Origin: Candidatus Aenigmatarchaeota archaeon
GTDB taxonomy: Archaea; Aenigmatarchaeota; Aenigmatarchaeia; GW2011-AR5; JAHLMP01
NCBI GenBank assembly: GCA_039000375.1
Contig: JAWBTS010000001.1
Location: 1 to 43,162 of the forward strand
Length of the DNA stretch: 43,162 bases
Direction: 5' to 3'
Of this stretch, positions 18,080 to 40,025 are shown piece by piece (the first letter of the stretch is position 1; each line of letters starts with the position of its first letter). The notes under the pieces are model-generated. The model did no database searches. It was not told the origin of the DNA and saw only the letters and a program-made list of their open reading frames with translations. Made by a program: the position numbers and the translations under genes.

Positions 18080-18125
18080 TTGATTTTAAATTAAAAAATA
18101 AAACATAAAAATAGCCCCGCTCGGA

Positions 18126-18136
18126 TTCTCGAAAAA
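18126..18136 (-). other. 11-nt T-loop (59/60) intron of tRNA-Gln
   Basis: The T region is UUCGAA-UUUUUCGAGAA-U. UUCG pairs 4/4 with CGAG, and both strands carry an AA|U bulge. Removal restores UUCGAAU. Confidence 0.7.
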
Positions 18137-18157
18137 TTCGAACCGAGGTCTTCGGCT

Positions 18158-18199
18158 TTCTTCGTTAGCTCATCTTTTTTCGCATCTTTGGATTAATCT
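18158..18199 (-). other. Canonical 37/38 intron of tRNA-Gln (42 nt)
   Basis: CUUU (32-35) pairs with GAAG at the intron 3' end. The 3-nt bulges GG|A and AA|A flank this 4-bp helix (bulge-helix-bulge). Confidence 0.75.
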
Positions 18200-18261
18200 C
18201 CAAAGGCCGATATGCTTGACCGCTACACCACGGGGCTTTATATTTTATTCATTTATTTAAG

Positions 18262-18271
18262 ATTTATAATA
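18262..18271. promoter_or_regulatory. Shared palindromic TATA element between tRNA-Gln and thrS
   Basis: ATTTATAAT: the minus strand reads TTATAAAT at -32 to -25 from tRNA position +1, and the plus strand reads TTTATAAT at -30 to -23 from the thrS ATG (18294). Confidence 0.35.
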
Positions 18272-18293
18272 TTTTCGCAAGATTAACAATTTT

Positions 18294-20180
18294 ATGAAAA
18301 TACTTTTGATACATGCAGACTTCATAGAATATGAAGCAAAAGAAAAGGCAATTGAGCAAGCAGAAAAATTGGAAAAAAGTTTTGAAAAAGTTGACGAATG
18401 TTTAGTTGTTTTTATTGCTGTAGAAAAATATGATGAAAAAAATGTTGATCAGGTTGTAGAAAATTTGTTTGAAGAGATAGATAAAGTAGCATCTCAGCTT
18501 GGTGTTAAGAGAATAGTTTTATATCCTTATGCTCATCTAAGCAGCGAGTTGGCTTCCTCAGAAATTGCGATAAAAATCTTAAAAAGCGCAGAAGATAAAC
18601 TAAGAGAAAAATATGAAGTTTTTCGGGCTCCTTTCGGATGGTATAAAAGCTTTCAAATAAAGTGTAAAGGGCATCCTCTCTCAGAACTTTCTAGAGAAAT
18701 TAGAGTAGAGGAGGTTTCAGAAGCACTTAAAAAAGAAGAGAAATTAAAATCAGAGTGGTATATAATAGAGCCAAATGGAAATTTACACAAAATAGAATTA
18801 AAAGACGGAGAAATAGTTGGATTTGATTTCAGCTCTTACAAGAGGTTAGAAAAGTTTTCTAGATACGAGATGGCAAAATCAAGAAAAGTTGTCGAAGAAC
18901 CACCACACATAAAGCTTATGAGAAGATTGGAGCTTGTAGATTATGAACCAGCAAGCGATCCAGGAAATTTAAGATATTTACCAAAAGGAAGGTTAATTAA
19001 GTCTTTGATAGAAGATTATGTAACTATAAAAACAAAAGAGTATGGAGCAATGGAAGTAGAAACACCTATAATGTATGATTATGAACATCCGGCATTAAAA
19101 GATTATTTGAATAGATTTCCAGCAAGACAATATAAAATCCAAACACCAAATAAAAAGGTTTTCTTAAGATTTGCCGCATGCTTTGGTCAATTTCTTTTAG
19201 CGAAAGATATGATACTTTCCTATAAGAATTTGCCAATGAAATTATACGAACTTACTAAATATAGTTTTAGAGTAGAACAGAGGGGAGAGCTTGCTGGTTT
19301 AAGAAGATTAAGAACTTTTACAATGCCAGATTGTCACGCTTTTTGCAGAGATATGGAAGAAGCAAAAGAGGAAATTAAAAAGAGATTTGATCTTGCAATT
19401 AATCTCCAAGAAAAATTTGAAATAGGAAAAGAATATCTTGAACTTGCTATAAGAGTTACTAAAGATTTTTTTGAGAATAATAAAGATTTTATCAAAAGCT
19501 TTGTAGAATTTTGGGGAAAACCAGCACTTCTAGAGATTTGGGAAAAACAATTTTTCTATTTCGTCTTTAAATATGAGTTAAATTTTGTAGATGCATTAGA
19601 CAAAGCAGCAGCATTAACAACAGATCAGATTGATGTAGAAAACGCTAAAAGATATGGAATTCAGTTCATAGATTCAGATGGAAGTAAGAAGTATCCTATA
19701 ATATTACACTTATCTCCTAGTGGAGCAGTTGAACGTGTTATTTATGCTATTCTCGAAAAGGCTTATATGGAAAAAAGAGAGAATAAGTTACCGACAATAC
19801 CACTTTGGCTAGCGCCAACTCAAGTAAGAATTTGCTGTGTAAGCAATAATTTCGTAAAAGATGCTGAAATTTTGGCTAATGAACTTGAAAAAAATAAAAT
19901 AAGGGTAGATATAGACGATAGAGATTTAACAATAGCGAAAAAGATAAGAGAGGCAGAAATGGAATGGACGCCTATAATAATAGTTTTTGGTGAGAAAGAA
20001 AGAAAAGAATTCCCAAATAGGTTATCAGTAAGAATAAGAACCAAAGAGGGAGATGTTATAAAAGATATGTCCTTAGAAGAAATTATTAAATATATAAAAG
20101 AGAGGACAGAAGAATTTCCTTTCAAACAATTACCTCTAGATAAATTCTTGTCAAAAAGACCAATATTTTACTCAAAGTGA
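18294..20180 (+). CDS. thrS: Threonyl-tRNA synthetase with archaea-specific N-terminal editing domain
   Basis: MKILLIHADFIEYEAKEKA (archaeal editing-domain start), class II catalytic core (FRVEQRGELAGLRRLRTFTMPDCH), and a C-terminal anticodon-binding domain. Confidence 0.92.
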   Translation: MKILLIHADFIEYEAKEKAIEQAEKLEKSFEKVDECLVVFIAVEKYDEKNVDQVVENLFEEIDKVASQLGVKRIVLYPYAHLSSELASSEIAIKILKSAEDKLREKYEVFRAPFGWYKSFQIKCKGHPLSELSREIRVEEVSEALKKEEKLKSEWYIIEPNGNLHKIELKDGEIVGFDFSSYKRLEKFSRYEMAKSRKVVEEPPHIKLMRRLELVDYEPASDPGNLRYLPKGRLIKSLIEDYVTIKTKEYGAMEVETPIMYDYEHPALKDYLNRFPARQYKIQTPNKKVFLRFAACFGQFLLAKDMILSYKNLPMKLYELTKYSFRVEQRGELAGLRRLRTFTMPDCHAFCRDMEEAKEEIKKRFDLAINLQEKFEIGKEYLELAIRVTKDFFENNKDFIKSFVEFWGKPALLEIWEKQFFYFVFKYELNFVDALDKAAALTTDQIDVENAKRYGIQFIDSDGSKKYPIILHLSPSGAVERVIYAILEKAYMEKRENKLPTIPLWLAPTQVRICCVSNNFVKDAEILANELEKNKIRVDIDDRDLTIAKKIREAEMEWTPIIIVFGEKERKEFPNRLSVRIRTKEGDVIKDMSLEEIIKYIKERTEEFPFKQLPLDKFLSKRPIFYSK

Positions 20181-20197
20181 ATATATTGGAGAAAATT

Positions 20198-20515
20198 ATG
20201 GAAAAGATAGAAATAAGAAAAATAAATAAATCAGACATAGATGAAATTTTGTCTTTAGAAGCCAGATTTCCACCAAAATCAAGAGAGATGATGACAAAAG
20301 AAAAGATAGAGGAAATGTTATCAAAAAATCCAGAAGCATGTTTAATAGCAGAAGAAAACCATAAAATAGTAGGAGCTATTTTCGGAGAACCGAAAAGAGA
20401 AGGATGTAAAATAGTCTCTCTCATAATAGATTTAGATAAAATTGGCGAAGATATTTCTTCAAAACTGATAAAAGAATTGTTGGATAGAACAAAATCAAAA
20501 AACATTATAAAATGA
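20198..20515 (+). CDS. Short GNAT-like acetyltransferase-related protein (degenerate motif A)
   Basis: IEIRKINKSDIDEILSLE...CLIAEENHKIVGAIFG resembles a GNAT N-terminal half. The Q/RxxGxG/A motif is not intact and the protein is only about 105 aa. The alternative GTG at 20177 overlaps the thrS stop. Confidence 0.35.
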   Translation: MEKIEIRKINKSDIDEILSLEARFPPKSREMMTKEKIEEMLSKNPEACLIAEENHKIVGAIFGEPKREGCKIVSLIIDLDKIGEDISSKLIKELLDRTKSKNIIK

Positions 20516-20523
20516 ACTAGTTT

Positions 20524-21492
20524 TTATACTTTGTACTGATATCTAAATTCTTCCTCTTCCTTTCTTATTTTTTCTTTTATTTTCTTTACTATTTGTTTCA
20601 TTTTAATTTTTATTATAAACCATATAGAAAATCTTCTTCTAAAGGAATATCTATAAGGTACTTTTCTCATCCTTTTCTCATATATATAATAAACAATCAG
20701 AATTATAATTAAAATAAAGATCGGCGCAACAAAGAATAGGATTCCTATTTCCAATGAAAAACTATCGGCAAATACTATAGTTTCGAATTCATTAATTATA
20801 TCCTTTTTGACTCTCTTATTAACAGAAAGTATAATTGAAATCTCCTTTCCTTTCTCAACAGAAGATGAGAAAAACAAAATCTTTGGATCATCTTCCAATA
20901 TTCTTATTCTTTCGTTTGTTATTATACCAATCTCTTTAGCTGTGTTTGCAAAACCTTTTGGAATAAATTGATAAATTATAAGATTGTTTATTTTTTTACT
21001 ACCATTATACGAAATTGTAATGGTTAAATTTGTGTTATTTTCTATATAAAGCTCATATCTAATACTAATATTATCTATTATTTTTTCTGTCGTTTTTTTA
21101 GCTTTATTTTCATCAAACTTTGAAAATTTCTTTAAATATTCTTTAATTTCATCTATTACTTTATTTGTTTTATTTAGATCTAGTACAACATTTCTCAATT
21201 CTACTTCACGAAGAAGAATAGTCGTCGTAGTTGTAGTAGTTATAGTCGTAGTTGTAGTAGTTATTGTAGTAGTTGTCGTTGTTTTAGGAATAGTTGTTGT
21301 GGTATTTGTTTCTTCCGGAATTGTCGTAGTTGTTGTTACGGTCATTCCATAAAGACCGGTAACAATATGCTTCGAAGCATTTGTAAAGTTCATATTAATG
21401 CTCAAATTTCCTATGACCTCGCAGAAGGCCGAATTAACGAATGCAACTAAAAAAACTATAAAATATATTTTAAAAAGATATTTTGCTTTCAT
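20524..21492 (-). CDS. Secreted, C-terminally membrane-anchored Thr-rich (mucin-like) surface protein
   Basis: Signal-like N-terminus, a 41-residue tract that is almost pure Thr, a globular region with sequons, a C-terminal TM helix (ILFFVAPIFILIIILIVYYIY) and a basic tail. Confidence 0.6.
   Translation of the reverse strand: MKAKYLFKIYFIVFLVAFVNSAFCEVIGNLSINMNFTNASKHIVTGLYGMTVTTTTTIPEETNTTTTIPKTTTTTTITTTTTTITTTTTTTILLREVELRNVVLDLNKTNKVIDEIKEYLKKFSKFDENKAKKTTEKIIDNISIRYELYIENNTNLTITISYNGSKKINNLIIYQFIPKGFANTAKEIGIITNERIRILEDDPKILFFSSSVEKGKEISIILSVNKRVKKDIINEFETIVFADSFSLEIGILFFVAPIFILIIILIVYYIYEKRMRKVPYRYSFRRRFSIWFIIKIKMKQIVKKIKEKIRKEEEEFRYQYKV
21220..21342 (-). repeat. Low-complexity poly-threonine coding tract
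   Basis: Imperfect tandem ACN codon repeats encoding TVTTTTTIPEETNTTTTIPKTTTTTTITTTTTTITTTTTTT. Confidence 0.8.
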
Positions 21493-21516
21493 CTTCTAAA
21501 AACACCGTTCTAATAC

Positions 21517-22902
21517 TTATCCAATGAAAGGAATAGACCTAAATAGCATACTATAAGTTGTCCACCAATCACTTGCAATAGGAGTTCCTTTAGGGATTAT
21601 CATTTTTAATATTAAAGTATAATTTCTATTTTCTGTTAGATTTAACCTTATACCTCTATTTATGTTATATTCATTTGTTACGTTAAAGGCATTACTCTCA
21701 TTTCCACTAAGCCACATGCTTGCATAGTATGTAGCGTTATCTCCCGTTCCATTAGTTATTGGTATAATTGCGTTCTTGCTGTCAGATCTCCAATCATTCA
21801 TTTTGAACTGCAAAAGTCCAGAAGCATTTGCATTTCCTATTATTGTAAAGTTGAATAACCAATAGTCGCTTCCATTAACTATTGCTATGTTTTTCATTAC
21901 TCCGATATTTGTAATATTAAATAATTGCCTTATAAATAGCGTTGTTTCGCTTCCATTAACATCTGTAGAAACATCGCTCAAATTATCTCCATATATTTTA
22001 GAGTTAAAAGTAAAATTGCCTTCATCTTTTGTAGTATTCAAAGAAATATTTATAATAGAGAGTTTTATTCCTGCTTGTGACGTTATATTTATCTTGCAAA
22101 TATCGCTGCAATTTAAGTTACAAAGGTCTGTGCAAGAAGAGAATGTAGCGGTTGTATTATCACTTTTAGTTATCACAAATTTAATATTGCTAGGAACTAT
22201 TGAAAAGTTTGATGGAACCTCTAAAATTATACTTCTTATATCATCTTTTCCACTAGAATTTATTATATAAACTATTTCTTGCTCTTTAACATTTGTATCT
22301 ACATATCTTGGTAATAGCTTTGCACTTGCATGTAAGTCTTGAATTTGAGTAAAATTAGAAGAGAAATATCGAGAAGTTTGGTTATATATCTGTCCATTCA
22401 AAAAAGAGATTGTAATATTTGTGGCATTTGTTATCAAAGAATCATTTGTTAAAAATAAAGAAACATTTATAGGAGTAATCACACTTCTATTTATTTCATA
22501 AACTATTAGAATTGTTTTATTTTCATTATTAGAAATTGTGAAATTAGAAATCGTGACATTGGTTCTATTAATATCGTTGCTAACATTCCACCTAGAGCTA
22601 CAGCCAAGTTTTTGAGATTCGTTTATAGTTGAGTTATAAATGCAAACAACGAGATTAGTTATGCTTGCATTCAAAGTTTCGTTTGTAGAGTTAAAATTAA
22701 TTATTATATTCGTTATCTTAATAGTTTCATTACTAGTTTCATTTCTACTTAAAGTCAAATTGAGCATTGTAATGTTGCCTCCAGTATTGACATAAGGCGG
22801 AAGATCAACTCTATTACTTGTCACGTTTAAATTAGCACCATAGCTTATTCTATAAAGGACGAGTGAAATTAAAATAAAAATTAATATTGTTTTGATTTTC
22901 AT
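21517..22902 (-). CDS. Secreted protein extremely rich in N-glycosylation sequons (candidate surface/S-layer-like glycoprotein)
   Basis: Signal peptide MKIKTILIFILISLVLYRISYGA. About 42 N-X-S/T sequons in 461 aa by hand count. Beta-rich composition with no recognised family motif. Confidence 0.65.
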   Translation of the reverse strand: MKIKTILIFILISLVLYRISYGANLNVTSNRVDLPPYVNTGGNITMLNLTLSRNETSNETIKITNIIINFNSTNETLNASITNLVVCIYNSTINESQKLGCSSRWNVSNDINRTNVTISNFTISNNENKTILIVYEINRSVITPINVSLFLTNDSLITNATNITISFLNGQIYNQTSRYFSSNFTQIQDLHASAKLLPRYVDTNVKEQEIVYIINSSGKDDIRSIILEVPSNFSIVPSNIKFVITKSDNTTATFSSCTDLCNLNCSDICKINITSQAGIKLSIINISLNTTKDEGNFTFNSKIYGDNLSDVSTDVNGSETTLFIRQLFNITNIGVMKNIAIVNGSDYWLFNFTIIGNANASGLLQFKMNDWRSDSKNAIIPITNGTGDNATYYASMWLSGNESNAFNVTNEYNINRGIRLNLTENRNYTLILKMIIPKGTPIASDWWTTYSMLFRSIPFIG

Positions 22903-23049
22903 GAATATAACTTTAGATAAAATATTTATTTAAGCATTTATTTTATTTGACAATGAGGCTTAGACCAACTTTATATAGATATTTACTATAATTTTCAACC
23001 CCTACTTGCTTTTATATTCCACAAGTGAGGGAATTAAAATCCTTTCACA

Positions 23050-23149
23050 TGCCCCCGGTGAGATTCTCTCTTTTACATATCGAATAGTTTCGAACTCACG
23101 ACCCCCAGCTTAGGAGGCTGGTGCTCTATCCAAACTGAGCTACGGGGGC
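23050..23149 (-). tRNA. tRNA-Arg (CCU) with a T-loop intron
   Basis: GCCCCCG-UA-GCUC-AGUUUGGAUA-GAGC-A-CCAGC-CUCCUAA-GCUGG-GGGUC-GUGAG...CUCAC-CGGGGGC-A. 100 nt = 75 mature + 25. No encoded CCA. Confidence 0.88.
23064..23088 (-). other. 25-nt T-loop (59/60) intron of tRNA-Arg
   Basis: UUCGAA-ACUAUUCGAUAUGUAAAAGAGAGAA-U. UUCG pairs with AGAG (3 of 4 including G-U), with bulges AA|A and AA|U. Removal restores UUCGAAU. Confidence 0.7.
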
Positions 23150-23251
23150 TTTCTAATTTTTTGCTGTCTTAATTTCTTTTGTAGCTACAAAGTTTAAAAA
23201 ATCCGTATTCATATATAGTTTATAAAAAATATAATGATGAAGATGATCTGA

Positions 23252-23992
23252 ATGGAGTTGTTTTTTATAATTTTTAGCACTCTTATAGTGAGTTTAATCT
23301 CTTTAGTTGGTATTTTCTTCATTTTATTAAAGGAAAAAACAATGAATAGGGTCTTATTGTTTTTTATTTCTTTATCTGCAGGAGCTCTTTTATCAGGAGC
23401 TTTCTTTCATCTTCTACCAGAAGCGATACACGAAGAAAACGGCAAATTAATGGAAATATTTTTTTACTTTGTTTTTGGCTACATTTTATTTCTATTTTTA
23501 GAAAAGATTATAAAATGGAGACACTGCCACGATTATAAATGCAAAATTCATTCTTTTGGATATATGAACTTAATTGGAGATATTTTACACAATTTCATCG
23601 ATGGCGTTGTTATAGCTTCTTCTTTTCTCGTTAATTCGAATTTTGGTTTTCTTACAACTTTTTTAATTATATTACATGAAATACCGCAGGAATTAGGAGA
23701 TTTTGGCGTTCTTATTTATTCTGGTTTTGAAGTGAAAAGAGCAATATTTTTGAACTTTCTCACAGCATTCACCTGTATTTTAGGCGGAGTTGCTGGTTAT
23801 TATTTTCTCGGAATATTTATATCTTTCATTCCAATTTTTCTTTCTATAGCTGCAGGTGGTTTTCTTTATATTTCTTCCTCTGATCTGATTCCAATAATCA
23901 GAGAAAAAACTAAAATAAAGGATTTCATAAATAATTTTTTGATATTTATTTTCGGAATAATCTTAATATATCTATTAGGGATTTTAGAGTGA
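23252..23992 (+). CDS. ZIP-family divalent metal transporter (ZupT-like)
   Basis: Polytopic protein with the signature helices HNFIDGVVIASSF and LHEIPQELGDFGVL. Confidence 0.8.
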   Translation: MELFFIIFSTLIVSLISLVGIFFILLKEKTMNRVLLFFISLSAGALLSGAFFHLLPEAIHEENGKLMEIFFYFVFGYILFLFLEKIIKWRHCHDYKCKIHSFGYMNLIGDILHNFIDGVVIASSFLVNSNFGFLTTFLIILHEIPQELGDFGVLIYSGFEVKRAIFLNFLTAFTCILGGVAGYYFLGIFISFIPIFLSIAAGGFLYISSSDLIPIIREKTKIKDFINNFLIFIFGIILIYLLGILE

Positions 23993-24003
23993 AACACCTT
24001 ATC

Positions 24004-24693
24004 TTACTCAAATCCATATTTTCCTTTAAGCTCAACAAAGATGCAACCACCTAAATCTTTGAAAGAGTTTTTCTTCTTATCATATAAAATAAGTCTTTGA
24101 GAAAACCTCTTTCCAATAGGGGCAATAAGTTTTCCATCATCTTTTAATTGTTCAATTAATGGTGGAGGTATTTTTGGGCAAGCAGCAGTGATTATGCATC
24201 TATCGTAAGGGGCTTCTTTCTCATAACCAAGTCCACCATCCCCGTGGATTATTTCTACATTTTTTATATTCAACTTATTCAAATTTTCTTTAGCAAAATC
24301 AACAAGCTCCTTTTCTATTTCAATAGTAAAAACCTTTCCAGGATAAACTATACTTCCTATTAGTGCAGCATTCCAACCGCTTCCTGCGCCAACCTCGAGA
24401 ACTTTTTGATTTTTTTGTAAATCCAAATTTTCTAACATTATCGCAACTATACTTGGCTGCGAAATAGTTTGACCCTTTAATGTTGGGAGAGGAGTATCTA
24501 CATAAGCATAAGATTTATCTTTCAAAAATAGGTGTCGAGGAACATTTAAGAAAGCTTTTCTAACTTTCTCACTCTTTATTGCTCCGATGTTTGTCAAATA
24601 ATCTACAAAAATTTTGTTCTTTTCGTATAGTTTTTTGTCATTATTTGTAATTATCTCTTTTCTATCACTATTGTTCAAAAAATTCGATGTCAT
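24004..24693 (-). CDS. pcm: Protein-L-isoaspartate O-methyltransferase
   Basis: GQTISQPSIVAIMLENLDL, SAM motif KVLEVGAGSGWNAALI, and LIAPIG near the C-terminus. Confidence 0.88.
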   Translation of the reverse strand: MTSNFLNNSDRKEIITNNDKKLYEKNKIFVDYLTNIGAIKSEKVRKAFLNVPRHLFLKDKSYAYVDTPLPTLKGQTISQPSIVAIMLENLDLQKNQKVLEVGAGSGWNAALIGSIVYPGKVFTIEIEKELVDFAKENLNKLNIKNVEIIHGDGGLGYEKEAPYDRCIITAACPKIPPPLIEQLKDDGKLIAPIGKRFSQRLILYDKKKNSFKDLGGCIFVELKGKYGFE

Positions 24694-24694
24694 A

Positions 24695-31667: not shown

Positions 31668-31701
31668 GTAGATATTTTTTTCAACTATTTTGAATACAAA
31701 C

Positions 31702-32178: not shown

Positions 32179-32259
32179 TAATAGTTTTTTGTTTTCACAA
32201 TTATTTATAATTAGTTTTATGTTTTATTAGATTTCTTTAATAAAATGGGCCCGAGGAGA

Positions 32260-32278
32260 TTTTCAAAGCTTAATAAAT
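32260..32278 (-). other. 19-nt T-loop (59/60) intron of the Pro-like tRNA
   Basis: UUCAAA-AUUUAUUAAGCUUUGAAAA-U. UUCA pairs 4/4 with UGAA, with bulges AA|A and AA|U. Removal restores UUCAAAU. Confidence 0.7.
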
Positions 32279-32303
32279 TTTGAACTCCTGTCTCGAGCTC
32301 CCT

Positions 32304-32315
32304 TTAAGCTCGGTT
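32304..32315 (-). other. 12-nt mini-intron in the anticodon loop (33/34) of the Pro-like tRNA
   Basis: AACCGAGCUUAA: GAGC (28-31) pairs with the intron GCUU, with bulges CU|A and AA|A, and UCC pairs with GGG as the outer helix. The product loop is CUAGGGA. Confidence 0.5.
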
Positions 32316-32430
32316 AGGCTCGGATCCTAGACCAAGCTAGACGACGGGCCCAATTTAAATTTATGATGGACTCATATTAAGTTTATAAATATATCTATGG
32401 TTTATTATTTAATAAGTTGGGTGTGATAAA

Positions 32431-32598
32431 ATGGTAACGGTATTAAAAGATAAATGTATTGGTTGCGGAGCTTGTGCAGCAATATGCCCTGAAGGTTTTG
32501 AATTAAAAAAAGGAAAATCTCATGTTAAGAACTCTAAAGCAAAGTGTATAAAAGAGGCAGCCGCTTCTTGTCCTGTAGGAGCCATTGTATTAGATTAA
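32431..32598 (+). CDS. Small monocluster-type ferredoxin (55 aa; below the ORF-track cutoff)
   Basis: Hand translation: MVTVLKDKCIGCGACAAICPEGFELKKGKSHVKNSKAKCIKEAAASCPVGAIVLD. It has CxxCxxCxxxCP plus a distal C...CP, followed by an oligo-T tract. Confidence 0.7.
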   Translation: MVTVLKDKCIGCGACAAICPEGFELKKGKSHVKNSKAKCIKEAAASCPVGAIVLD

Positions 32599-32675
32599 TT
32601 TTTTTTCTTTATTTTATTTTCGACTCTTTTGGTTGCGATGACATTTTTTGTAGTAATCTCAATTCAGGGTTATGA

Positions 32676-32691
32676 TTTAAAAATTTAAAAT
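32676..32691 (+). promoter_or_regulatory. Tandem TATA-like elements upstream of the rps13 operon
   Basis: TTTAAAAATTTAAAAT lies 35-50 nt upstream of the ATG (32726). GGTGA Shine-Dalgarno-like motif at 32716-32720. Confidence 0.3.
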
Positions 32692-32725
32692 AATATTAGA
32701 ATTCTTAATTGTATTTGGTGAATAC

Positions 32726-33241: not shown

Positions 33242-33249
33242 GTGATTAT

Positions 33250-33720: not shown

Positions 33721-34105
33721 AAAGATAAGATGGGGAATAGCGCACATATATTCCTCTATAAATAATACGATAGTTCATATAACAGATATCACCGGAAGCC
33801 AGACAATAGCAAGATTCAGTGGAGGGCAATTTACAGATAAAGATAGATTGAAAGGAAAAGCATATCCTGCAATGAAAGCAGCAAGAAAAGCAGCTGAATT
33901 AGCGATTGCAGCAGGCATTACTGGTTTACATATAAGAGTTAGAGGTCAAGGTGGTAATAAAAGCATATTACCAGGTGAAGGAGCTCAGCCTGCGATAAGA
34001 ACATTGGCAAGAAGTGGGTTAAAGATAGGAAGAATAGAGGATGTGACACCAATTCCTACAGATCATTGTAGAAAGAAAGGTGGAAGAAGAGGAAGAAGGG
34101 TATAA
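33713..34105 (+). CDS. rps11: Ribosomal protein uS11
   Basis: [22 protein letters not shown]...[12 protein letters not shown]...[40 protein letters not shown]. Overlaps rps4 by 8 nt. Confidence 0.92.
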
Positions 34106-34158
34106 AAATTTAGAATTTATATTTAATCAAGATAATCAATACTTTGAGGCGAATTTTG

Positions 34159-34767
34159 ATGGATGTAAAAATTATTGAAGAAAATGACAGAAAAATAAAA
34201 TTTTCTATAAGCGGAATTGGAAGTGCCTTAGCAAATTCTTTAAGAAGAGTTATGATGTCTGAGATACCAACATTAGCTATAGATAAAGTTGAATTCTATC
34301 AAAATTCTTCAGGACTTTTCGATGAGGTCATAGCTCATCGTTTGGGCTTGATACCACTAAAATTTAATCCAAAAAAATATAATCTAAAATCAGAATGTAA
34401 ATGTAAAGGAAAAGGTTGTAGCCTCTGCGAAGTTAAATTAAGCTTTGATACAAAAAATCTTACAGAAGAGAGCGATTATACAGTAACTTCTAAAGATTTA
34501 GAGTCAGAAGATCCAGAAGTAAAGCCACTCTATGATGATATTCCAATAGTCGAACTTCTAAAAGGTCAGAAACTAAAATTTGTTGCAACAGCAAGATTAG
34601 GATTAGGAAAAGAGCATGCCAAATGGCAAGGAGCTATAGTAGGTATTGAGGAAAAGAAAGACGAATTTATTTTTGATGTAGAATCCGCTTGTGGTCTAAC
34701 AGCAAGAGAGGTTTTAGAAACAGCAATAAAAGTTTTAGAAAATAAAATAAAAAACTTTAAGATATAA
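34159..34767 (+). CDS. rpoD: DNA-directed RNA polymerase subunit D (Rpo3)
   Basis: FSISGIGSALANSLRRVMMSEIPTLAIDKVEFYQNSSGLFDEVIAHRLGLIPL, a Cys cluster CKCKGKGCSLC, and KWQ near the C-terminus. The ORF track starts at a TTG (34144); the ATG at 34159 is used. Confidence 0.88.
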   Translation: MDVKIIEENDRKIKFSISGIGSALANSLRRVMMSEIPTLAIDKVEFYQNSSGLFDEVIAHRLGLIPLKFNPKKYNLKSECKCKGKGCSLCEVKLSFDTKNLTEESDYTVTSKDLESEDPEVKPLYDDIPIVELLKGQKLKFVATARLGLGKEHAKWQGAIVGIEEKKDEFIFDVESACGLTAREVLETAIKVLENKIKNFKI

Positions 34768-34805
34768 AAATTCTTATTATTTTGCAGGGGTAGCCAAGTG
34801 GTCAA

Positions 34806-34816
34806 ATCTTGACCAA
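34806..34816 (+). other. 11-nt D-loop intron of tRNA-Leu
   Basis: GGUC-AA|A-UCUU-GACC-AA|A: a 4-bp helix GGUC/GACC with two AA|A bulges. Removal gives the standard Leu D-loop AAGUGGUCAAA. Confidence 0.65.
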
Positions 34817-34832
34817 AGGCGCAGGACTTAAG

Positions 34833-34879
34833 TTTAAAACTTAAGTTATGATCGCTGCTTGCGAGATGATTTTTGAGAT
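34833..34879 (+). other. Canonical 37/38 intron of tRNA-Leu (47 nt)
   Basis: CUUA (32-35) pairs with UGAG at the intron 3' end, with bulges AG|U and AU|A. Confidence 0.75.
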
Positions 34880-35483
34880 ATCCTGTGGCTTAGTGCCTTC
34901 CTGGGTTCGAATCCCAGCCCCTGCATACACTTTAGGTATTAAAGCTTTTCGGTTATACCCATCTTCAGTAGAATTTCTAACTGGAAATTTTAAGGAAGTT
35001 AACTGAATTCTTTACTCTCATCTTTCTCTAGAGCTTAATACTTGAAAATGTTATTTTGCATAAAATATTGGTGAAAAATATAAAATTTATTTATTCCTTT
35101 TATTTCCTTTCACTCTTTTCTCATACTGCCTAACTAATAAGCAAAGTGTTTGCACAAAACTTCAAGCTTTCTTGTCTAGATACTCCTATATTAAGTCTAA
35201 AGAAGTTCTATACATCGTTATCGTCATGGTTCTTAAACTTAAGAAGCGGTTTTGTTCAACTTTGAATTTGAAAATTCTCTTATTTTCTACGGGAAACTAG
35301 AAAGGTATTAGCCTTATGATTTTTGACAAGTAAAGCTGAATGAGTATTTGATTAATTTTCTGAATAACTAATTTACTTTTTCAAAATATCTTTTTATAGA
35401 AATGTGTTACCTGAATATTACCTTTTTTGGCATTTTATTATTCAAATGATAGGAAAACTTGTTAAAAAGTTTTAATCTTTGTT

Positions 35484-35786
35484 TTATTCGTAAAAAGACT
35501 TACACAACTTTACTTGTTTCTTAATTGTGTTAATGAATTTTTTGAAAAGTTTTATTTCTTTAGCTATACCATAAAATGCTATTAGACTCCAAACTATGTT
35601 TAAAGTAGCCGGAGGATAAGCACCATTAGCAATCGCATTAATTGCAATACATATTCCTCCGAATAAATTCATAGCATGATAAATCTTAGATTCTCTATCC
35701 AATTTCTTGCTGGTAATGAGAAAATAAGCTAATAGAATCATAGCCATTCCTGTCCATCCAATTATTTCAATGGATATACTACTCAT
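35484..35786 (-). CDS. Small three-helix membrane protein, family uncertain
   Basis: 100 aa with three hydrophobic helices (IGWTGMAMILLAYFLI; NLFGGICIAINAI; LNIVWSLIAFYGI). Flanked by 558-nt and 361-nt non-coding gaps. Confidence 0.45.
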   Translation of the reverse strand: MSSISIEIIGWTGMAMILLAYFLITSKKLDRESKIYHAMNLFGGICIAINAIANGAYPPATLNIVWSLIAFYGIAKEIKLFKKFINTIKKQVKLCKSFYE

Positions 35787-36147
35787 AATTTAGTTTATGC
35801 AAGAATTTATTATAAAAGATTTATTTTAATAGCCACATAGGGAAGAGAGTAAGGCAATTGGAGTTATTACAAACATACATTACTTATTTTCTTGGTCGGA
35901 AAAATTTATATATGAAAATAAGAATGGAATTAAATTCCTTACTTTGAGTTTATTAGTTTTAGATGATTTATTATAAATTTATTTAGTTTAAGCCAAGCTC
36001 TTTTGTGAAATTTAAACAGATTTTTTAGTCTTGAAATATCGAGCTATTTAATTGCTTTAGAAGAATTTTCTGTAGATAGTTTAGTGTTTTTTTCACGGAG
36101 TTAACTTATAATAATTTAATTCGATATTCAAAATTTTAAATAAACTC

Positions 36148-37083
36148 TTATTTTTGTTTTATAACAAAATTGATATAGTAAGAAGTTTGAAAAGCAAGTA
36201 CTAGTAAAAATGCTAGTACATCGGCTATATAATAAATTAACAATGGAGATAAATAACCTATAGAAGAGATTATAATAATCACAAAAAGGAAAATTAACAC
36301 AGAGAAAGACCAAACTAACGATATTTCAACAAAATTCTCTTTAAGATATTTGAGTGATTTTTTAATAGTAAAAATAAGATTTTGTTCTGTTAACATAATC
36401 TCTTGCAATATGAAAATAAAAATAAATTTTATTAATATTAAAAAAATGGTTGATAACATAAAAGCATTAGATATTAGACTAGAAAGACAATAAGGATCAT
36501 TAATTATGCACAAATCGATTAAGTTTTCAGGTATTTGAATTATAGGTTTTCCGAACATACTTAAAGAATCTAAAATTAAAATTACATAATTTAATTGTAC
36601 GTTGAACTTCTCTAATTTATCTACATTGTTTATATTTTTGTTCATAGAAAATAAATAAACTATGTTTGAAGTCATGGAAAGAAAATTTAATATCACAACT
36701 AAAAATCCTACTAAAACTAATTTTCTAAATTTTTTACTTGCGGTTTTGATTGAGGAAGTTATGCTAACTTTTTCTCTTCGTTGAAAGGATAGAATAGAGT
36801 TAATTAAAGCACCTATTAGCACTAAATTTAGAATAAAAAATATTACAGACATCAAGACTATTAAATAAATTATAGTAAATAATAACTCTGTATCAAAAAC
36901 TTTGATATCAAATATCAAATCAAATAGAAATAAAGATAAAATCTTACCCCATGAAATAGCTAATGGTAGTTGAGCTAAAAGAAATAGAAAATAAAAAGTA
37001 ATGCCTATTTTCGAAATAGCAAATTTTATACTTAACTTTAATGACGACTTAATTTTTTCAATATTTTTCTTCACCAATCTCAC
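36148..37083 (-). CDS. Polytopic membrane protein, orphan
   Basis: 311 aa with at least six hydrophobic helices. No ATG near the 5' end (GTG/TTG start). Overlaps the upstream gene by 26 nt. Confidence 0.45.
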   Translation of the reverse strand: MRLVKKNIEKIKSSLKLSIKFAISKIGITFYFLFLLAQLPLAISWGKILSLFLFDLIFDIKVFDTELLFTIIYLIVLMSVIFFILNLVLIGALINSILSFQRREKVSITSSIKTASKKFRKLVLVGFLVVILNFLSMTSNIVYLFSMNKNINNVDKLEKFNVQLNYVILILDSLSMFGKPIIQIPENLIDLCIINDPYCLSSLISNAFMLSTIFLILIKFIFIFILQEIMLTEQNLIFTIKKSLKYLKENFVEISLVWSFSVLIFLFVIIIISSIGYLSPLLIYYIADVLAFLLVLAFQTSYYINFVIKQK

Positions 37084-38077
37084 CCATAATATTTTCTTTC
37101 ATACACAGTGCAAGCATGGCATGAGTAGTTATAACAAATTTTATTGATTTTATTGATAGAGAAATTGATCGTGGTTCGTAGCAAGGTAGGTTCAAGTTCT
37201 TTAAATCTTCAAATACCTTTTTATTACATTCATCTACGCTTTTCATAATAACACTATAATATAATTTTAGATATGGATTTTTGATGTTCGGCAAATTCTC
37301 ACTAAGATATCTCTCTATGTTTTGAGCACCTATTAAAGGTAAATATTGAGCACAATATTGAATATCTAGCTTAGTAAAGTTTATCTCTTTTATTAAACTA
37401 CTTGATTTAGCTTCTATTTCATCTAGTGCTTTTATTGAACATTTATGATATCTTTCTTTCTTCTCTGAAATATTTATCTGTGACATATTGCTTGTACAGT
37501 TTTCAAAGTACGAAGAAAGCCAATTATCTGACCATACTACTAATAAAGATTGTAATCCAGTAAATTGAGGTATTAGTAGAATTTTGTCAAAATTTTCATC
37601 AATTCTTTCCAAATCTTTCATTGAAGTAGTAATTCCATAAATAATGCTTAGATATGATAAATGTTGCGAATATTTCATTAAATTTGAGTGGGCTATCTGT
37701 GGAGCAGTGATTTTGCAATTCTCTTTATCAATTTCTGATAAAGAACAAACTCGATCTTCAAAAAAGTTATCTTTTCTAATTTCCATATAAACCTTATCTA
37801 AAATAGAAGTTAGAGTAGTGATTGTATTTTCCTTTCTTGGAACTTCTACTACCCCAAAGCTTTTTTCTATTTCTTTCAAGATTTCTTCTTCATGTGATTT
37901 TAAAAAGTTTTCAAACCAAAATTCTATACGAGTTTTCTGTTGAGCAGAAAACTTTTTTATAAGTTCAGATTCAATAAAAGTGGCTTGTATATATAAATAT
38001 AAAAAAGAAGATAAAACTCCAAAAATTATAACACTCACAAAAATAAAAATTATTGTAGCAAATTTCTTAATATTCAT
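37058..38077 (-). CDS. N-terminally anchored, Cys-containing helical protein, orphan
   Basis: 339 aa. A TM anchor (FATIIFIFVSVIIFGVLSSFLYLYI), then a helical, charged ectodomain with about 10 Cys. No recognised motif. Confidence 0.5.
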   Translation of the reverse strand: MNIKKFATIIFIFVSVIIFGVLSSFLYLYIQATFIESELIKKFSAQQKTRIEFWFENFLKSHEEEILKEIEKSFGVVEVPRKENTITTLTSILDKVYMEIRKDNFFEDRVCSLSEIDKENCKITAPQIAHSNLMKYSQHLSYLSIIYGITTSMKDLERIDENFDKILLIPQFTGLQSLLVVWSDNWLSSYFENCTSNMSQINISEKKERYHKCSIKALDEIEAKSSSLIKEINFTKLDIQYCAQYLPLIGAQNIERYLSENLPNIKNPYLKLYYSVIMKSVDECNKKVFEDLKNLNLPCYEPRSISLSIKSIKFVITTHAMLALCMKENIMGEIGEEKY

Positions 38078-38246
38078 TTTATTTTAATATATTCTCCTAA
38101 AATATAAAAGATTAAGGATTTTACAAACTAAAAGATTTGTTGTCTTATTTTGTCAAATGTTATATACCTAATTTTCTGTGCAGTGTAGAAATTATAATGC
38201 GACGTGTTGAGAATATTTTAAAACTTTTATTAAAAAATTAAACGAT

Positions 38247-38543
38247 ATGCGTAGCGAGAATGAAAAAAAGAAAGATAAGAGTATAGAAAAATTGTTAAAG
38301 AAGATAAAGCCAAAGAAAGATGTAGAAGTTAATATTTACAAACTTGAAAAGCTTTGTAATGATGGGGATGTTGTTATTGTGCCAGGAAGGGTTCTTGGTA
38401 GCGGCGAAATTACTAAAAAGCTCACGGTTTATGCTCTCGGATTTTCGAAACCTGCTAAGGAGAAAATAATTCTTGCAGGTGGTAAAGCTTTAAAACTCAA
38501 AGAATTAAAAGAAAAGGTAAAAGGAATGAAGATAATAAAGTAG
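38247..38543 (+). CDS. rpl18e: Ribosomal protein eL18 (L18e)
   Basis: VVIVPGRVLGSGEITKKLTVYALGFSKPAKEKIILAGGKALKLKEL matches the L18e core. A short 98-aa version. Confidence 0.8.
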   Translation: MRSENEKKKDKSIEKLLKKIKPKKDVEVNIYKLEKLCNDGDVVIVPGRVLGSGEITKKLTVYALGFSKPAKEKIILAGGKALKLKELKEKVKGMKIIK

Positions 38544-38571
38544 CGTGTTGGTAAAAATTAGATATAAAGTG

Positions 38572-38988
38572 ATGAAGATGCTGGTTATAGACGCTGATGG
38601 TGCAGTTTTAGGAAGACTATCGTCTTTCGTAGCAAAAAAATTGTTAGAAGGAGAAGAGGTTCATATAATAAATGCAGAAAAGGCAATAATTACAGGAGAC
38701 CCAAAAGTAGTTTTAGAAAAGTATCTAGATAGAATAGGAAGAGGAAATCCTCATCACGGGCCTTTCTTTCCAAGACAACCGCATAGAATATTAAGAAGAG
38801 CTATTAGAGGAATGCTTCCATACAAAAAGGCAAAAGGAAGAAATGCATTAAAAAGGTTAAAGGTTTATGTTGGCGTGCCTGAAGTTCTTAAAGATAAAGA
38901 AGCAATAAAAATGAAAGAAAAAAAGAAGTGTAAATATATAACACTATTAGAATTGTCAAAATTGATTGGTGGATGGAAAGAAACTTAG
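38572..38988 (+). CDS. rpl13: Ribosomal protein uL13
   Basis: LVIDADGAVLGRLSSFVAKKLLEGEEVHIINAEKAIITG...ILRRAIRGMLPYKKAKGRNALKRLKVY. The ORF track starts at a GTG (38545); the ATG at 38572 is used. Confidence 0.9.
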   Translation: MKMLVIDADGAVLGRLSSFVAKKLLEGEEVHIINAEKAIITGDPKVVLEKYLDRIGRGNPHHGPFFPRQPHRILRRAIRGMLPYKKAKGRNALKRLKVYVGVPEVLKDKEAIKMKEKKKCKYITLLELSKLIGGWKET

Positions 38989-38997
38989 GGTGTTAAA

Positions 38998-39408
38998 ATG
39001 AAAAAATCAAAGATTATAATTCATGCAGTAGGAAAAAGAAAGAGAGCAATAGCTAGAGCGACATTAAGAGAAGGTAGTGGAAGAATACGAATAAATAAAG
39101 TTCCACTTGAGCTTTATCGTCCTAAATATGCAAAACTTAGAATAGAAGAGCCATTAATCTTAGCTAAGGATTTTGTTAAAAACGTTGATATAGATGTAAA
39201 TGTTAAAGGAGGCGGAGTTTTTGGACAAGTGGATGCGATTCGAGTAGCTATTTGTAATGCTTTAGTAAAGTTTAACAAAAATCTTAAAAAATTATTTTTA
39301 TCTTTTGATCGCTCCTTGCTTGTTAGCGATCCTAGAAGAACAGAGCCTCATAAACCAAGTCGTTCTAGTGCAGGTCCAAGAAGAAAGAAGCAGCAAAGCA
39401 AGAGATAA
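38998..39408 (+). CDS. rps9: Ribosomal protein uS9
   Basis: AVGKRKRAIARATLREGSGRIRINK...VKGGGVFGQVDAIRVAICNAL...DPRRTEPHKPSRSSAGPRRKKQQSKR. Confidence 0.92.
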   Translation: MKKSKIIIHAVGKRKRAIARATLREGSGRIRINKVPLELYRPKYAKLRIEEPLILAKDFVKNVDIDVNVKGGGVFGQVDAIRVAICNALVKFNKNLKKLFLSFDRSLLVSDPRRTEPHKPSRSSAGPRRKKQQSKR

Positions 39409-39517
39409 TCATTATTCTAAAGAAAGCAAGAGATAATTATTTTTCTTTTGCAAATTATTTCTCACTCTCAACTTTAATTCCTCCAATATTAAAAATTACG
39501 TAAATATATTAATTAAT

Positions 39518-39841
39518 ATGAATTTTTTTGTTAAGGGAGCGCTAATAATTTTAACAATATTTGTAGCATTATTTATAATAGGAATTCTGACAGGAGAAAG
39601 GTGTTATGAAATAGGAGCTTGTAAAGAATGTTGGATAGTAGATGACGCAAAAGATCAGTATAATTCATTAATCGACCTAATAACTTGTGCATGTAAAGAA
39701 GCTAAAGAGAGATATTTTCAAGATAGCGAGATAAACTACAGGATAGAGTTTATTTATGAAAGCTTAATGCAAAATAGAGCTAAAGCAAGTGCAGAGCAGA
39801 TATGTAATGGAGAAGTACCTTTAGTAAAATATGAAGATTAG
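39518..39841 (+). CDS. Small secreted/anchored Cys-rich protein with pilin-like (class III) signal
   Basis: MNFFVKG|ALIILTIFVALFIIGIL (a KG-A cleavage-type motif followed by a hydrophobic helix), then CYEIGACKECW...CACKE...C (7 Cys). Confidence 0.45.
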   Translation: MNFFVKGALIILTIFVALFIIGILTGERCYEIGACKECWIVDDAKDQYNSLIDLITCACKEAKERYFQDSEINYRIEFIYESLMQNRAKASAEQICNGEVPLVKYED

Positions 39842-39915
39842 AGACTCTGGCAAATTTCGAATAAATCTAGATAAATTTTAAATTTATTATAACTATTTAT
39901 TTTTCTGAAATAAAA

Positions 39916-40025
39916 GCCTCGGTAGCTCAACGGTAGAGCGTCTGACTTGTATCTGATATTTTGATCTTTGAAAGAGATGAAAGAAAGATATCAGAAGGTT
40001 GAGGGTTCGAATCCCTCCCGAGGCT
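39916..40025 (+). tRNA. tRNA-Thr (UGU) with canonical intron
   Basis: GCCUCGG-UA-GCUC-AACGGUA-GAGC-G-UCUGA-CUUGUA[38 nt]A-UCAGA-AGGUU-GAGGG-UUCGAAU-CCCUC-CCGAGGC-U. 110 nt = 72 + 38. Confidence 0.88.
39952..39989 (+). other. Canonical 37/38 intron of tRNA-Thr (38 nt)
   Basis: The intron starts with a copy of the 5' anticodon stem (UCUGAUAU) that can pair with AUAUCAGA at its 3' end. Bulges UA|U and AU|A. Confidence 0.7.

Follow-up and report, generated by a model that had tools for sequence, protein, structure and literature searches.

Eight predicted introns in five tRNA genes of a hot-spring Aenigmatarchaeota archaeon, with candidate methylation-guide modules in three of them

Introduction

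This report concerns the tRNA genes in a 43,162-nt stretch of DNA from Candidatus Aenigmatarchaeota archaeon (contig JAWBTS010000001.1, GCA_039000375.1), a hot-spring DPANN archaeon; the whole stretch is referred to here as the window. Five tRNA genes are detectable in the window and all are interrupted, by eight insertions that are very probably introns of the archaeal endonuclease type. Non-canonical intron sites (20/21, 22/23, 30/31 and 59/60) and the relaxed splice motifs hBH and HBh' are established for Crenarchaeota and Nanoarchaeota (PMC4090602). No survey of the tRNA introns of Aenigmatarchaeota is found in the searchable literature.

ARMAN-2 (Ca. Micrarchaeum) provides a described intron of this kind within DPANN. 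Its pre-tRNA-Cys(GCA) carries a 13-nt intron at 59/60 with an hBH, or bulge-helix-loop (BHL), motif that is cut in vitro by an epsilon2 endonuclease (PMC3239211). The T-loop introns of the window share its position, its use of the T stem as the outer helix, its 3' bulge, its 4-bp helix formed with the T-loop and the placement of the 5' splice site in a loop. ARMAN also has tRNAs with two T-loop introns, and tRNA-Pro(AGG), which occurs in the window, is found in ARMAN-4/5 (PMC3239211). The predicted introns of the window lineage differ in that they measure 10-12 nt rather than 13 nt, belong to the phylum Aenigmatarchaeota and occur at far higher density (8 in 5 genes).

The highest intron load on record is that of Pyrobaculum calidifontis, with 71 introns in 46 tRNA genes (PMC8450103), and P. 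islandicum has a tRNA-Pro with three introns (PMC8450103, PMC4090602). The organism studied here has 8 introns in 5 genes, or 9 in 6 when a neighbouring gene is included, and the resulting ~1.5-1.6 introns per gene match the record value in a small sample, six genes of one genome. Several introns per gene, non-canonical sites, relaxed bulge-helix-bulge (BHB) motifs and rapid gain and loss are features in common with the Thermoproteales. However, the latter are members of the TACK group that use an alpha2beta2 splicing endonuclease (EndA) with a Crenarchaea-specific loop, and their introns are usually longer and form families spread by transposition. Very short introns in the D- and T-arms, several per gene, are also known from Cyanidioschyzon merolae and from nucleomorphs, where they measure 3-24 nt (PMC4090602, PMC9602550); as predicted here, a T-arm intron in C. 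merolae interferes with modification, in that case blocking formation of Psi55 by Pus4. Those lineages and their enzymes are eukaryotic, and the splice motifs are only partly BHB-like. The basic phenomenon described here is therefore already known in kind, and the present case is notable for the density, the minimal size and the visible turnover of the introns.

A tRNA intron can also carry a guide RNA. The pre-tRNA-Trp intron of Haloferax volcanii and at least 29 other Archaea contains a box C/D guide for Cm34 and Um39 that acts before splicing (PMC2584109, PMC11408192, PMC7994747). An intron-embedded C/D guide has been reported for pre-tRNA-Trp only, and has been called "unique" (PMC2584109, PMC11408192). 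Three introns of the window resemble it in their location at 37/38, in putative guides that span exon-intron junctions to reach the anticodon arm, in the targets 34 and 39 and in a guide duplex and a splice motif that are mutually exclusive, which implies methylation first; fibrillarin, Nop5 and L7Ae are encoded as well. The known case is ~100 nt long with a full set of C, D', C' and D boxes and two guides, whereas the introns of the window lineage are 35-50 nt, have one kink-turn (K-turn) or kink-loop (K-loop), one guide and degenerate boxes, occur in tRNA-Gln, tRNA-Leu and tRNA-Thr, and are predicted guides only. In Pyrococcus, trans-acting C/D small RNAs (sRNAs) target position 34 of tRNA-Leu(UAA), tRNA-Leu(CAA), tRNA-Met and tRNA-Trp (PMC7994747). 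The wobble ribose of tRNA-Leu(UAA) is likewise a predicted target here, by the same guide logic, but the Pyrococcus sRNAs are free-standing with two box pairs, whereas the putative guide lies inside the intron of its own target. Any novelty of the present case would come from such putative single-K-turn guides in introns of tRNAs other than tRNA-Trp.

Results

The tRNA genes of the window largely escape standard detection. ARAGORN with default settings found none of the five, and in intron mode it called tRNA-Thr alone correctly; Rfam models detected two tRNAs when the gathering threshold was applied, and a third when the cutoff was relaxed to E<=10. After in-silico deletion of the eight insertions, 205 nt in total, ARAGORN called all five as canonical cloverleaves, namely Gln-UUG, Arg-CCU, Pro-AGG, Leu-UAA and Thr-UGU. 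The spliced sequences regained a standard D-loop and 7 nt in both the anticodon loop and the T-loop, and four orthologues from two related loci (L209 and L210) were also called as canonical tRNAs once spliced in the same manner. A finder of our own, which requires a 7-bp acceptor stem, an adjoining 5-bp T stem and UUCRA after the 5' strand of the T stem, recovered the same five genes in the window, all interrupted, and nothing further that was credible. An initial annotation of the window had stated that every tRNA gene in it is interrupted, and this is borne out; the five gene identities and eight insertion positions that it gave were also correct when G+C-rich intergenic islands were read manually and the coordinates verified. 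ARAGORN intron mode was tried as a means of classing introns across the phylum and was rejected, as it returned wrong isotypes and intron positions for multi-intron genes. For example, the two-intron tRNA-Leu was miscalled as tRNA-Pro in the window and as tRNA-His in two orthologues (L001 and L002), and geometry statistics built on such calls were therefore discarded.

Comparisons were made with fetched related or adjoining loci, labelled L001-L088, L163, L190, L209, L210 and L212, the first 80 of which (L001-L080) are thermosome loci. L001 belongs to a relative with 97% thermosome identity, whereas L209 and L210 were reached via S9 homologues and have 93% and 80% S9 identity, respectively. 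L081 overlaps the right-hand part of the window and extends past its right edge, and L085 covers the region to the left of position 1. In all, ~60 kb of the organism's genome of roughly 1 Mb was seen, with six tRNA genes.

The insertions share a common geometry. Because of boundary repeats, between one and five registers restore the same mature tRNA for each insertion, and in exactly one of these the two cuts, on opposite strands, each lie 2 nt 3' of a 4-bp helix. This helix, H, is formed by the exon nucleotides upstream of the 5' splice site and the intron nucleotides upstream of the 3' splice site (the latter strand is termed H'). It is complete in six introns and has three of four pairs in two. 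In total 30 of 32 positions are paired, compared to 17.0 +/- 2.5 for shuffled introns given equal register choice, and none of 5000 shuffles reached 30. In six introns the T stem or anticodon stem serves as the outer helix h, with 5-7 bp; the Pro 33/34 intron has an h of 3 bp and the Leu D-loop intron one of 1 bp. The inner helix h' has 0-2 bp in all eight introns, and 0 in five, so that the 5' "bulge" belongs to the loop. All eight thus fall outside the strict hBHBh' motif, a substrate of classical alpha4 and alpha'2 EndA that has two 3-nt bulges, each with helices of at least 2 bp on both sides. They have instead an outer helix, a 3' bulge, H and a 5' site in a loop, which is the layout cut by broad-specificity EndA. 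The motif class is relaxed hBH (BHL), not strict BHB, since the inner helix is absent throughout. The 3' bulge is AA|N in six of the eight introns, compared to ~16-18% expected by composition (P ~4e-4 to 7e-4), and AU|A in the other two. Among 18 distinct DPANN T-loop introns 11 have an AA 3' bulge. The AA bulge is a preference, not a rule. The template proposed initially for these introns (four exon nucleotides, NN|N, a loop, the 4-nt complement and AA|N) is upheld by the geometry, the statistics and the comparisons below, although the motif is of the relaxed form and the AA bulge is not universal.

In the T-loop and D-loop introns, the exon strand of H is built from nucleotides that are universally conserved in tRNA. 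The T-loop introns use U54-U55-C56-R57, and the D-loop intron uses G18-G19. The recurrence of 59/60 as an intron site can be attributed to the universal availability of U54-U55-C56-R57 as this strand. RNAfold predicts H in the Gln T-loop, Pro T-loop and Leu D-loop introns.

The tRNA-Gln(UUG) gene (18112-18237, minus strand; identified by manual parse, ARAGORN after in-silico splicing and our own finder) is 126 nt long and 73 nt when spliced. Its first intron (18158-18199) inserts 42 nt at 37/38 and has H CUUU/GAAG with 4/4 pairs, an h of 5 bp and bulges GG|A and AA|A; H is retained as CUUU/AAAG in the orthologues of L163 and L190. The second intron, UUUUUCGAGAA (18126-18136), inserts 11 nt at 59/60 and has H UUCG/CGAG with 4/4 pairs, the 5-bp T stem as h and bulges AA|U and AA|U. 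The H' variants UGGA, UGAA, UGAG and CGAA, found in a paralogue and in orthologues, all preserve the pairing. The sequence of this T-loop intron resembles a partial repeat of the T-loop. The paralogue is a tRNA-Gln(CUG) gene on the minus strand of L085 (13146-13228), ~1.6 kb to the left of window position 1, so that all six tRNA genes seen in this organism are interrupted. It lacks an anticodon-loop intron and has a 10-nt T-loop intron, UUUUUGGAAA, with an H' (UGGA) that differs from that of the Gln(UUG) intron at three of four positions and still pairs with UUCG at all four. A length of 10 nt also occurs in other lineages, which lowers the floor of about 11 nt initially suggested for such introns.

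The tRNA-Arg(CCU) gene (23050-23149, minus strand; Rfam scan at E<=10, ARAGORN after in-silico splicing and our own finder) is 100 nt long and 75 nt when spliced. Its single 25-nt intron at 59/60 (23064-23088) has H UUC(G)/(A)GAG, with 3/4 pairs and a G.A mismatch, an h of 5 bp and bulges AA|A and AA|U. Compared to L001, ~11 of 25 intron positions are changed, H is still UUC/GAA and the exons are identical. Directly after the discriminator base lies an imperfect hairpin, GUGAAAGGAUUUUAAUUCCCUCAC (23025-23049, minus strand), which may be a processing or terminator element.

The tRNA-Pro(AGG) gene (32246-32351, minus strand; ARAGORN after in-silico splicing) is 106 nt long and 75 nt when spliced, and has A34 at the wobble position. 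Its first intron, AACCGAGCUUAA (32304-32315), inserts 12 nt at 33/34, with H GAGC/GCUU built with the 5' strand of the anticodon stem (4/4 pairs), an h of 3 bp and bulges CU|A and AA|A. In L001 and L209 the loop alone is altered (AAUUGA and AUUUAA, respectively) and GCUU-AA is retained. The second intron (32260-32278) inserts 19 nt at 59/60, with H UUCA/UGAA (4/4 pairs; RNAfold pair probabilities 0.9-0.99), an h of 5 bp and bulges AA|A and AA|U. The L001 version has 20 nt and the L209 version 31 nt, and both retain UGAA-AA. Other anticodons for this gene, described at first only as Pro-like, were sought by enumerating all 12-nt deletions. A single solution, CU|AGGGA, combines U33 with a 7-nt loop, and the anticodon is therefore AGG. 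Archaea rarely have a tRNA-Pro with A34; L001, L002 and L209 share it, and ARMAN-4/5 is the only precedent found. The 33/34 region (32304-32325) resembles a tandem duplication of the preceding exon sequence, CCGAGCCUAA followed by CCGAGCUUAA.

The tRNA-Leu(UAA) gene (34784-34925, plus strand; Rfam scan at E<=10 and ARAGORN after in-silico splicing) is a class II gene of 142 nt, 84 nt when spliced. Its first intron (34806-34816) inserts 11 nt on the 3' side of the D-loop (~21/22), with H GGUC/GACC (4/4 pairs), an h of 1 bp and a 3' bulge AA|A. Its register is ambiguous within AAA, and its H, which uses both G18 and G19, has an RNAfold probability of 1.0. The second intron (34833-34879) inserts 47 nt at 37/38, with H CUUA/UGAG (4/4 pairs), an h of 7 bp and bulges AG|U and AU|A; its L209 counterpart has 50 nt with H' UAAG, and that of L210 has 35 nt with H' UGAG. 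The tRNA-Thr(UGU) gene (39916-40025, plus strand; Rfam, 65.3 bits, and ARAGORN) is 110 nt long and 72 nt when spliced. Its 38-nt intron at 37/38 (39952-39989) has H CUU(G)/(A)AAG with 3/4 pairs, an h of 5 bp and bulges UA|U and AU|A, and measures 36 nt in L209 and 44 nt in L210.

Among relatives, H is conserved in structure rather than in sequence. Relative to L001, the exons carry 2 differences over 306 nt and the introns ~17 over 153 columns, with every intron change either outside H or preserving its pairing. After in-silico splicing, the mature tRNA-Leu, tRNA-Thr and tRNA-Pro of L209 and L210 are identical or near-identical to those of the window, unlike the introns. In the D-loop of tRNA-Leu, L209 has a 12-nt intron with GGUC/GAUC and L210 has none, its mature D-loop being identical; the tRNA-Leu of L210 has instead a 12-nt intron at 59/60. 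The tRNA-Thr of L210 has an additional 13-nt intron at 30/31, with CGUC/GACG and a bulge AA|A (the Thr and Leu genes of L210 lie at 10769-10897 and 9041-9171). In a metagenome scan of tRNA-Gln T arms with the same stem, 109 of 120 had an ordinary 7-nt loop and 11 had an insert at the same site, of 10, 11, 22, 28 or 29 nt. The H' variants of these inserts are CGAG, UGAA, UGAG, CGAA and CGCA, and all except CGCA pair fully with UUCG. Across the 18 DPANN T-loop introns H is 88.9% paired, the C56:G pair is present in 18/18, and position 57 shows covariation with the nucleotide that it pairs with (A-U in five introns, G-C in five and G-U in one). These comparisons show that mini-introns turn over quickly at several sites within one family.

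The disruption is not confined to the window. The 80 thermosome loci contain ~79 credible tRNA candidates. Of these, 60 exceed 92 nt and 17 carry an insert in the T-loop, 10-79 nt in length, whereas tRNA genes in non-DPANN loci (ANME, Methanosarcinales and Bathyarchaeia) measure 72-75 nt. Heavy disruption thus belongs to the phylum and its DPANN neighbours.

The three 37/38 introns have a second shared architecture. Each contains a stretch complementary to the anticodon arm, which leads straight into an NNGA box that reads GCGA in the Gln intron, AUGA in the Leu intron and UUGA in the Thr intron. A hairpin or short loop separates this box from (G/A/U)AUGA-NN, whose final two nucleotides pair with the opening two of the box. 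Between the two GA dinucleotides, tandem sheared pairs with flanking 3b.3n and 4b.4n pairs are possible, giving a putative K-turn in Leu and Thr (4-bp C stem, L1-L3 = GAU) and a putative K-loop in Gln. The fifth nucleotide upstream of the D'-like box pairs with U34 (Gln and Leu) or U39 (Thr), in the window as in L163, L190, L209 and L210, and the guide duplexes are 7-11 bp. In the Gln intron the putative module (18168-18192, minus strand) consists of the guide UCCAAAGAU, the D'-like GCGA, a spacer and AUGAGC, with the fifth nucleotide pairing U34 at 18203. L163 and L190 retain the blocks CCAAAGAUGCGA and AUGAGC, and the remainder of the intron varies. The putative Leu module (34838-34871, plus strand) has the guide AACUUAAGUU, D' AUGA and the hairpin UCGC-UGCUU-GCGA, followed by L1-3 GAU, GA and UU, with the fifth nucleotide pairing U34 at 34829. 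Its orthologues retain the guide, NUGA and AUGA; D' is UUGA with AA in L209 and UUGA with GA in L210, the flanking pair changes from A:U to U:A, and the spacer is a hairpin in two of the sequences and a loop in one (L210). The putative Thr module (39952-39982, plus strand) has the guide UCUGAUAUU, D' UUGA and the hairpin UCUU-UGA-AAGA, followed by L1-3 GAU, GA and AA, with the fifth nucleotide pairing U39 of exon 2 at 39991. In L209 and L210 UCUGAUAUU-UUGA and AUGA(A/U)A are retained, and the three sequences have three different spacers. The Leu and Thr introns each differ from those of L001 by a single substitution, located in both cases in the apical loop of the putative C stem.

Proteins of box C/D ribonucleoproteins are encoded nearby. 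The methyltransferase core consists of fibrillarin, encoded at 3455-4138 on the minus strand (Pfam PF01269, E=2.5e-79), and Nop5, encoded at 4131-5084 on the minus strand (Pfam PF01798, E=1.2e-49); L7Ae is encoded just past the right edge of the window (L081, 2335-2676). A weak Rfam match to a C/D snoRNA (22.5 bits compared to a gathering score of 50) lies at 32630-32693, between a gene for a 55-aa ferredoxin (32432-32598) and S13. That sequence has a C-box-like GCGAUGA, an AUGAUU motif and no clear D box.

The remainder of the window is A+T-rich (G+C ~30%) and archaeal in gene content, with ThrRS containing an archaeal editing domain, aTrm56, a family-B DNA polymerase, thermosome, EF-2, fibrillarin and Nop5, and a ribosomal and RNA polymerase cluster, S13-S4-S11-RpoD-L18e-L13-S9. 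Two hot-spring metagenome-assembled genomes (MAGs), one of them labelled Aenigmatarchaeota (DRTY-6_2_bin_201), encode proteins with 100% and 97% identity to the thermosome, and dozens more Aenigmatarchaeota loci match it at 60-84% identity. A 136-kb contig of GCA_039000285.1 overlaps the right-hand part of the window, with an exact match over a 1-kb test stretch and the same gene order, and window DNA was detected in hot-spring metagenome runs. Directly 3' of tRNA-Leu, between rpoD and L18e-L13-S9, is an insertion of ~3.2 kb (34926-38100), where L001 has ~134 bp. It contains three minus-strand open reading frames, one of 100 aa (PF26604, a PHROG of unknown function) and two of 311 aa and 339 aa that matched no family. 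No att-like repeat of at least 10 nt and no PADLOC match were found in the insertion, and its one PHROG match is of unknown function. Such sequence at a tRNA gene could represent a small integrated element or an island specific to the strain; in L212 the corresponding position is occupied by a HepT/NTase toxin-antitoxin pair.

Discussion

With high confidence, the eight insertions are assigned to the endonuclease-type tRNA introns of the relaxed hBH class. Four exon nucleotides before the 5' splice site would pair with the four intron nucleotides before the 3' splice site, and a 3-nt bulge on the 3' strand, mostly AA|N, would lie between this helix and one already present in the tRNA (the T stem, the anticodon stem or a portion of it), with the 5' splice site located 2 nt into the loop. 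A broad-specificity EndA may then cut both sites, and RtcB with archease would join the exons. Archease, the RtcB cofactor, is encoded ~4 kb past the right edge of the window (L081, 6218-6658). ProRS and Trm112 are also encoded within 10 kb of the window in L081.

Several observations weigh against this assignment. The h' helix of the strict motif is present in none of the eight introns, and the H helices of the Arg and Thr introns each have one mismatch. The Leu D-loop intron is the least canonical, as a 4x3 internal loop replaces the bulge beside the D stem and leaves effectively no outer helix. RNAfold does not predict H in five of the eight introns (Gln, Leu and Thr 37/38, Pro 33/34 and Arg T-loop), where stronger helices compete. 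The combination of a complete H and an h of at least 2 bp is a frequent pattern. A search for it alone returned many occurrences per pre-tRNA, was valueless without the requirement that the tRNA be restored and was abandoned; the pattern carries weight solely because it coincides with the tRNA-restoring positions. No EndA was found in the window by Pfam, or by phmmer and hmmsearch in ~1.25 Mb of related or adjoining loci (L001-L088), including 10-kb extensions. Three metatranscriptomes from the study that includes this genome gave 0, 0 and 1 reads on 8.4 kb, too few to decide the matter. In further RNA runs (X22-X24) the matches were limited to unspliced sequence or contigs of relatives and none showed an exon joint, which settles nothing.

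The EndA involved is presumed to be of a broad-specificity type, which would carry a specificity loop (CSL/L1, ASL/L2 or L3). The initial annotation named the alpha2-beta2 and epsilon2 types as those of broad specificity. That is correct for these two types, but the list is not exhaustive, since alpha4-type EndAs with an L3 loop in several DPANN lineages have been linked to increased tRNA gene disruption by Kaneta et al. (PMC5829648). Two protein database searches, using an EndA query validated against PDB 1A79, returned thousands of EndAs, none attributable to the organism of the window; single-unit DPANN EndAs among them were named Nanoarchaeota or Woesearchaeota. Some of the single-unit DPANN EndAs (P0095, P0096, P0099, P0064 and P0066) have a lysine-rich N-terminal extension of 20-40 residues that others lack, and this extension could be an added RNA-binding tail related to a broad substrate range.

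The introns would also impose an order on tRNA maturation. As noted initially, the window encodes aTrm56, the tRNA C56 2'-O-methyltransferase (16872-17423, minus strand; Pfam PF01994, E=3.5e-52). In every T-loop intron, H pairs the target of this enzyme, C56, with G, and G18 and G19 are both paired in the H of the Leu D-loop intron. Since U54-R57 and G18-G19 make up half of the splice helix, formation of the elbow and modification of the T-loop would have to await splicing. In C. merolae, Pus4 leaves U55 unmodified in pre-tRNAs with a T-arm intron (PMC9602550). Together with the pairing of C56, this suggests that Cm56 formed by aTrm56, Psi55, other modifications of the T- and D-loops and the D/T elbow would all follow splicing.

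The strong helices that compete with the splice motif in the three long 37/38 introns, which were omitted from the initial annotation, are best read as guide plus K-turn modules. The probability that the Gln(UUG), Leu(UAA) and Thr(UGU) introns are miniature box C'/D'-type guide RNAs, 35-50 nt long and each with a single guide and a single K-turn or K-loop, is put at about even. Such modules would direct fibrillarin to 2'-O-methylate U34 (Gln and Leu) or U39 (Thr) of their own pre-tRNA before splicing; they could act in cis, in trans between pre-tRNAs or from excised, circularised introns. The guide duplex and H share nucleotides, and overlap in the Leu intron of L210, so that the pre-tRNA would have to switch from a "methylation" fold to a "splicing" fold. 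If the modules are guides, the mutual exclusion of the two structures would impose the order of methylation, refolding and splicing.

A serious alternative, a little short of even in our estimate, is that the helices of the long introns are merely stable structure or traces of intron origin through local duplications and hairpins, with no guide function, and that the K-turn likeness arose by chance in A/U-rich sequence. The boxes depart from the consensus (RUGAUGA and CUGA): GCGA, AUGA and UUGA stand in place of CUGA, and AUGAGC, AUGAUU and AUGAAA in place of UGAUGA. Each intron has one motif rather than the two box pairs, C/D and C'/D', of a complete guide, and the guides are only 7-10 bp. 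A second, terminal C/D K-turn was looked for in the long introns and none was convincing; Rfam gave no C/D match on the introns, and no canonical full-length C/D sRNA was found in the window by regular expression. Origin by duplication or from a hairpin is also suggested by the Pro 33/34 intron, which resembles a tandem duplication, and by the palindromic CUUAAG in Leu. The module detector was written after the pattern had been seen, and outside this lineage it scored near background (14/96 compared to ~5/96 in shuffles). Its rules, namely the K-turn, the fifth-nucleotide rule and positions 34 and 39, are nevertheless textbook properties of box C/D guides. Against this alternative, all three long introns share one architecture, in which the fifth-nucleotide rule leads to 34, 34 and 39, exactly the positions served by the tRNA-Trp guide. 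Shuffled introns gave a module with an exon target in 0.2-0.9% of trials and one aimed at 34 or 39 in ~0.03%. Across eight module sequences the guide, the GA of D' and AUGA are invariant (8/8 for GA and AUGA) and the spacer alternates between hairpin and loop, whereas the two pairs beside the G.A pairs covary (4n:4b is UA in five, GC in two and AU in one; 3n:3b is UA, CG, UG or U.U). Position 34 of tRNA-Leu(UAA) is, in addition, a known C/D target in Pyrococcus.

It is very unlikely that the short (10-13 nt) insertions in the T- and D-loops are retained, giving mature tRNAs with enlarged loops and an extra hairpin. Very small introns are hard to distinguish from expansion segments by sequence, the predicted hairpins are thermodynamically stable, and the RNA runs gave no excision joints. 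However, retention would destroy the 7-nt T-loop and sequester the U54-R57 or G18-G19 on which the D/T elbow depends. The presence or absence of the insertions over identical mature sequences, as in the Leu D-loop of L210 and in the 109 of 120 Gln T-loops that are empty, also argues for removal, as does the freedom of the loops in length and sequence while only the helix and bulge of the splice motif are kept. Moreover, the 13-nt equivalent of ARMAN-2 is cleaved in vitro.

That the five genes are decaying pseudogenes with functional copies elsewhere in the genome is highly improbable. Most of the genome lies outside the ~60 kb seen, and the anticodon AGG is unusual for an archaeal tRNA-Pro. 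Yet the exons are under strong purifying selection, as indicated by the near identity to L001 and by mature tRNA-Leu and tRNA-Thr that are identical at 80-93% S9 identity. All stems are intact, the T stem of the L210 tRNA-Leu has compensatory changes, and interruption affects every tRNA gene seen in the organism and most of those in the phylum. An assembly or binning artefact producing chimeric or mis-assembled tRNA regions has a negligible probability, even though the source is a MAG and one related record has masked stretches, because at least six independent assemblies, as well as Logan contigs of different runs, carry these genes interrupted in identical or near-identical form. The independent assemblies with the same sequences include L001, L002, L081-L084 and L209.

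The interrupted genes bear on how DPANN genomes are evaluated. Training of the BHB models in tRNAscan-SE 2.0 drew on Crenarchaeota, Euryarchaeota and Thaumarchaeota (PMC8450103), and Kaneta et al. noted that DPANN tRNA sets are often incompletely predicted, with Aenigmatarchaeota lying outside the genomes surveyed (PMC5829648). Given that ARAGORN found none and Rfam two or three of the five genes in the window, the tRNA counts by which DPANN MAGs are graded are likely underestimates. The "missing" tRNAs of DPANN genomes, and low scores on the tRNA criterion for MAG quality, are likely artefacts of intron load.

Finally, the introns bear on how tRNA introns originate and persist. The repeats in the Pro 33/34 and Gln T-loop introns hint that mini-introns may arise by local duplication, which would create the complement of H automatically. 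Introns of 10-13 nt that are gained and lost at 30/31, in the D-loop and at 59/60 provide a natural series in which to study the smallest endonuclease substrate and the origin of introns. If the putative guide modules of the 37/38 introns are real, intron-encoded guides would extend beyond the single known case, a full-size C/D RNA in tRNA-Trp, to other tRNAs. They would also define a natural half-size guide, in which one K-turn is enough for a C/D-type guide, and some tRNA introns in a reduced-genome symbiont would persist as carriers of a guide for methylation of the wobble position or position 39.

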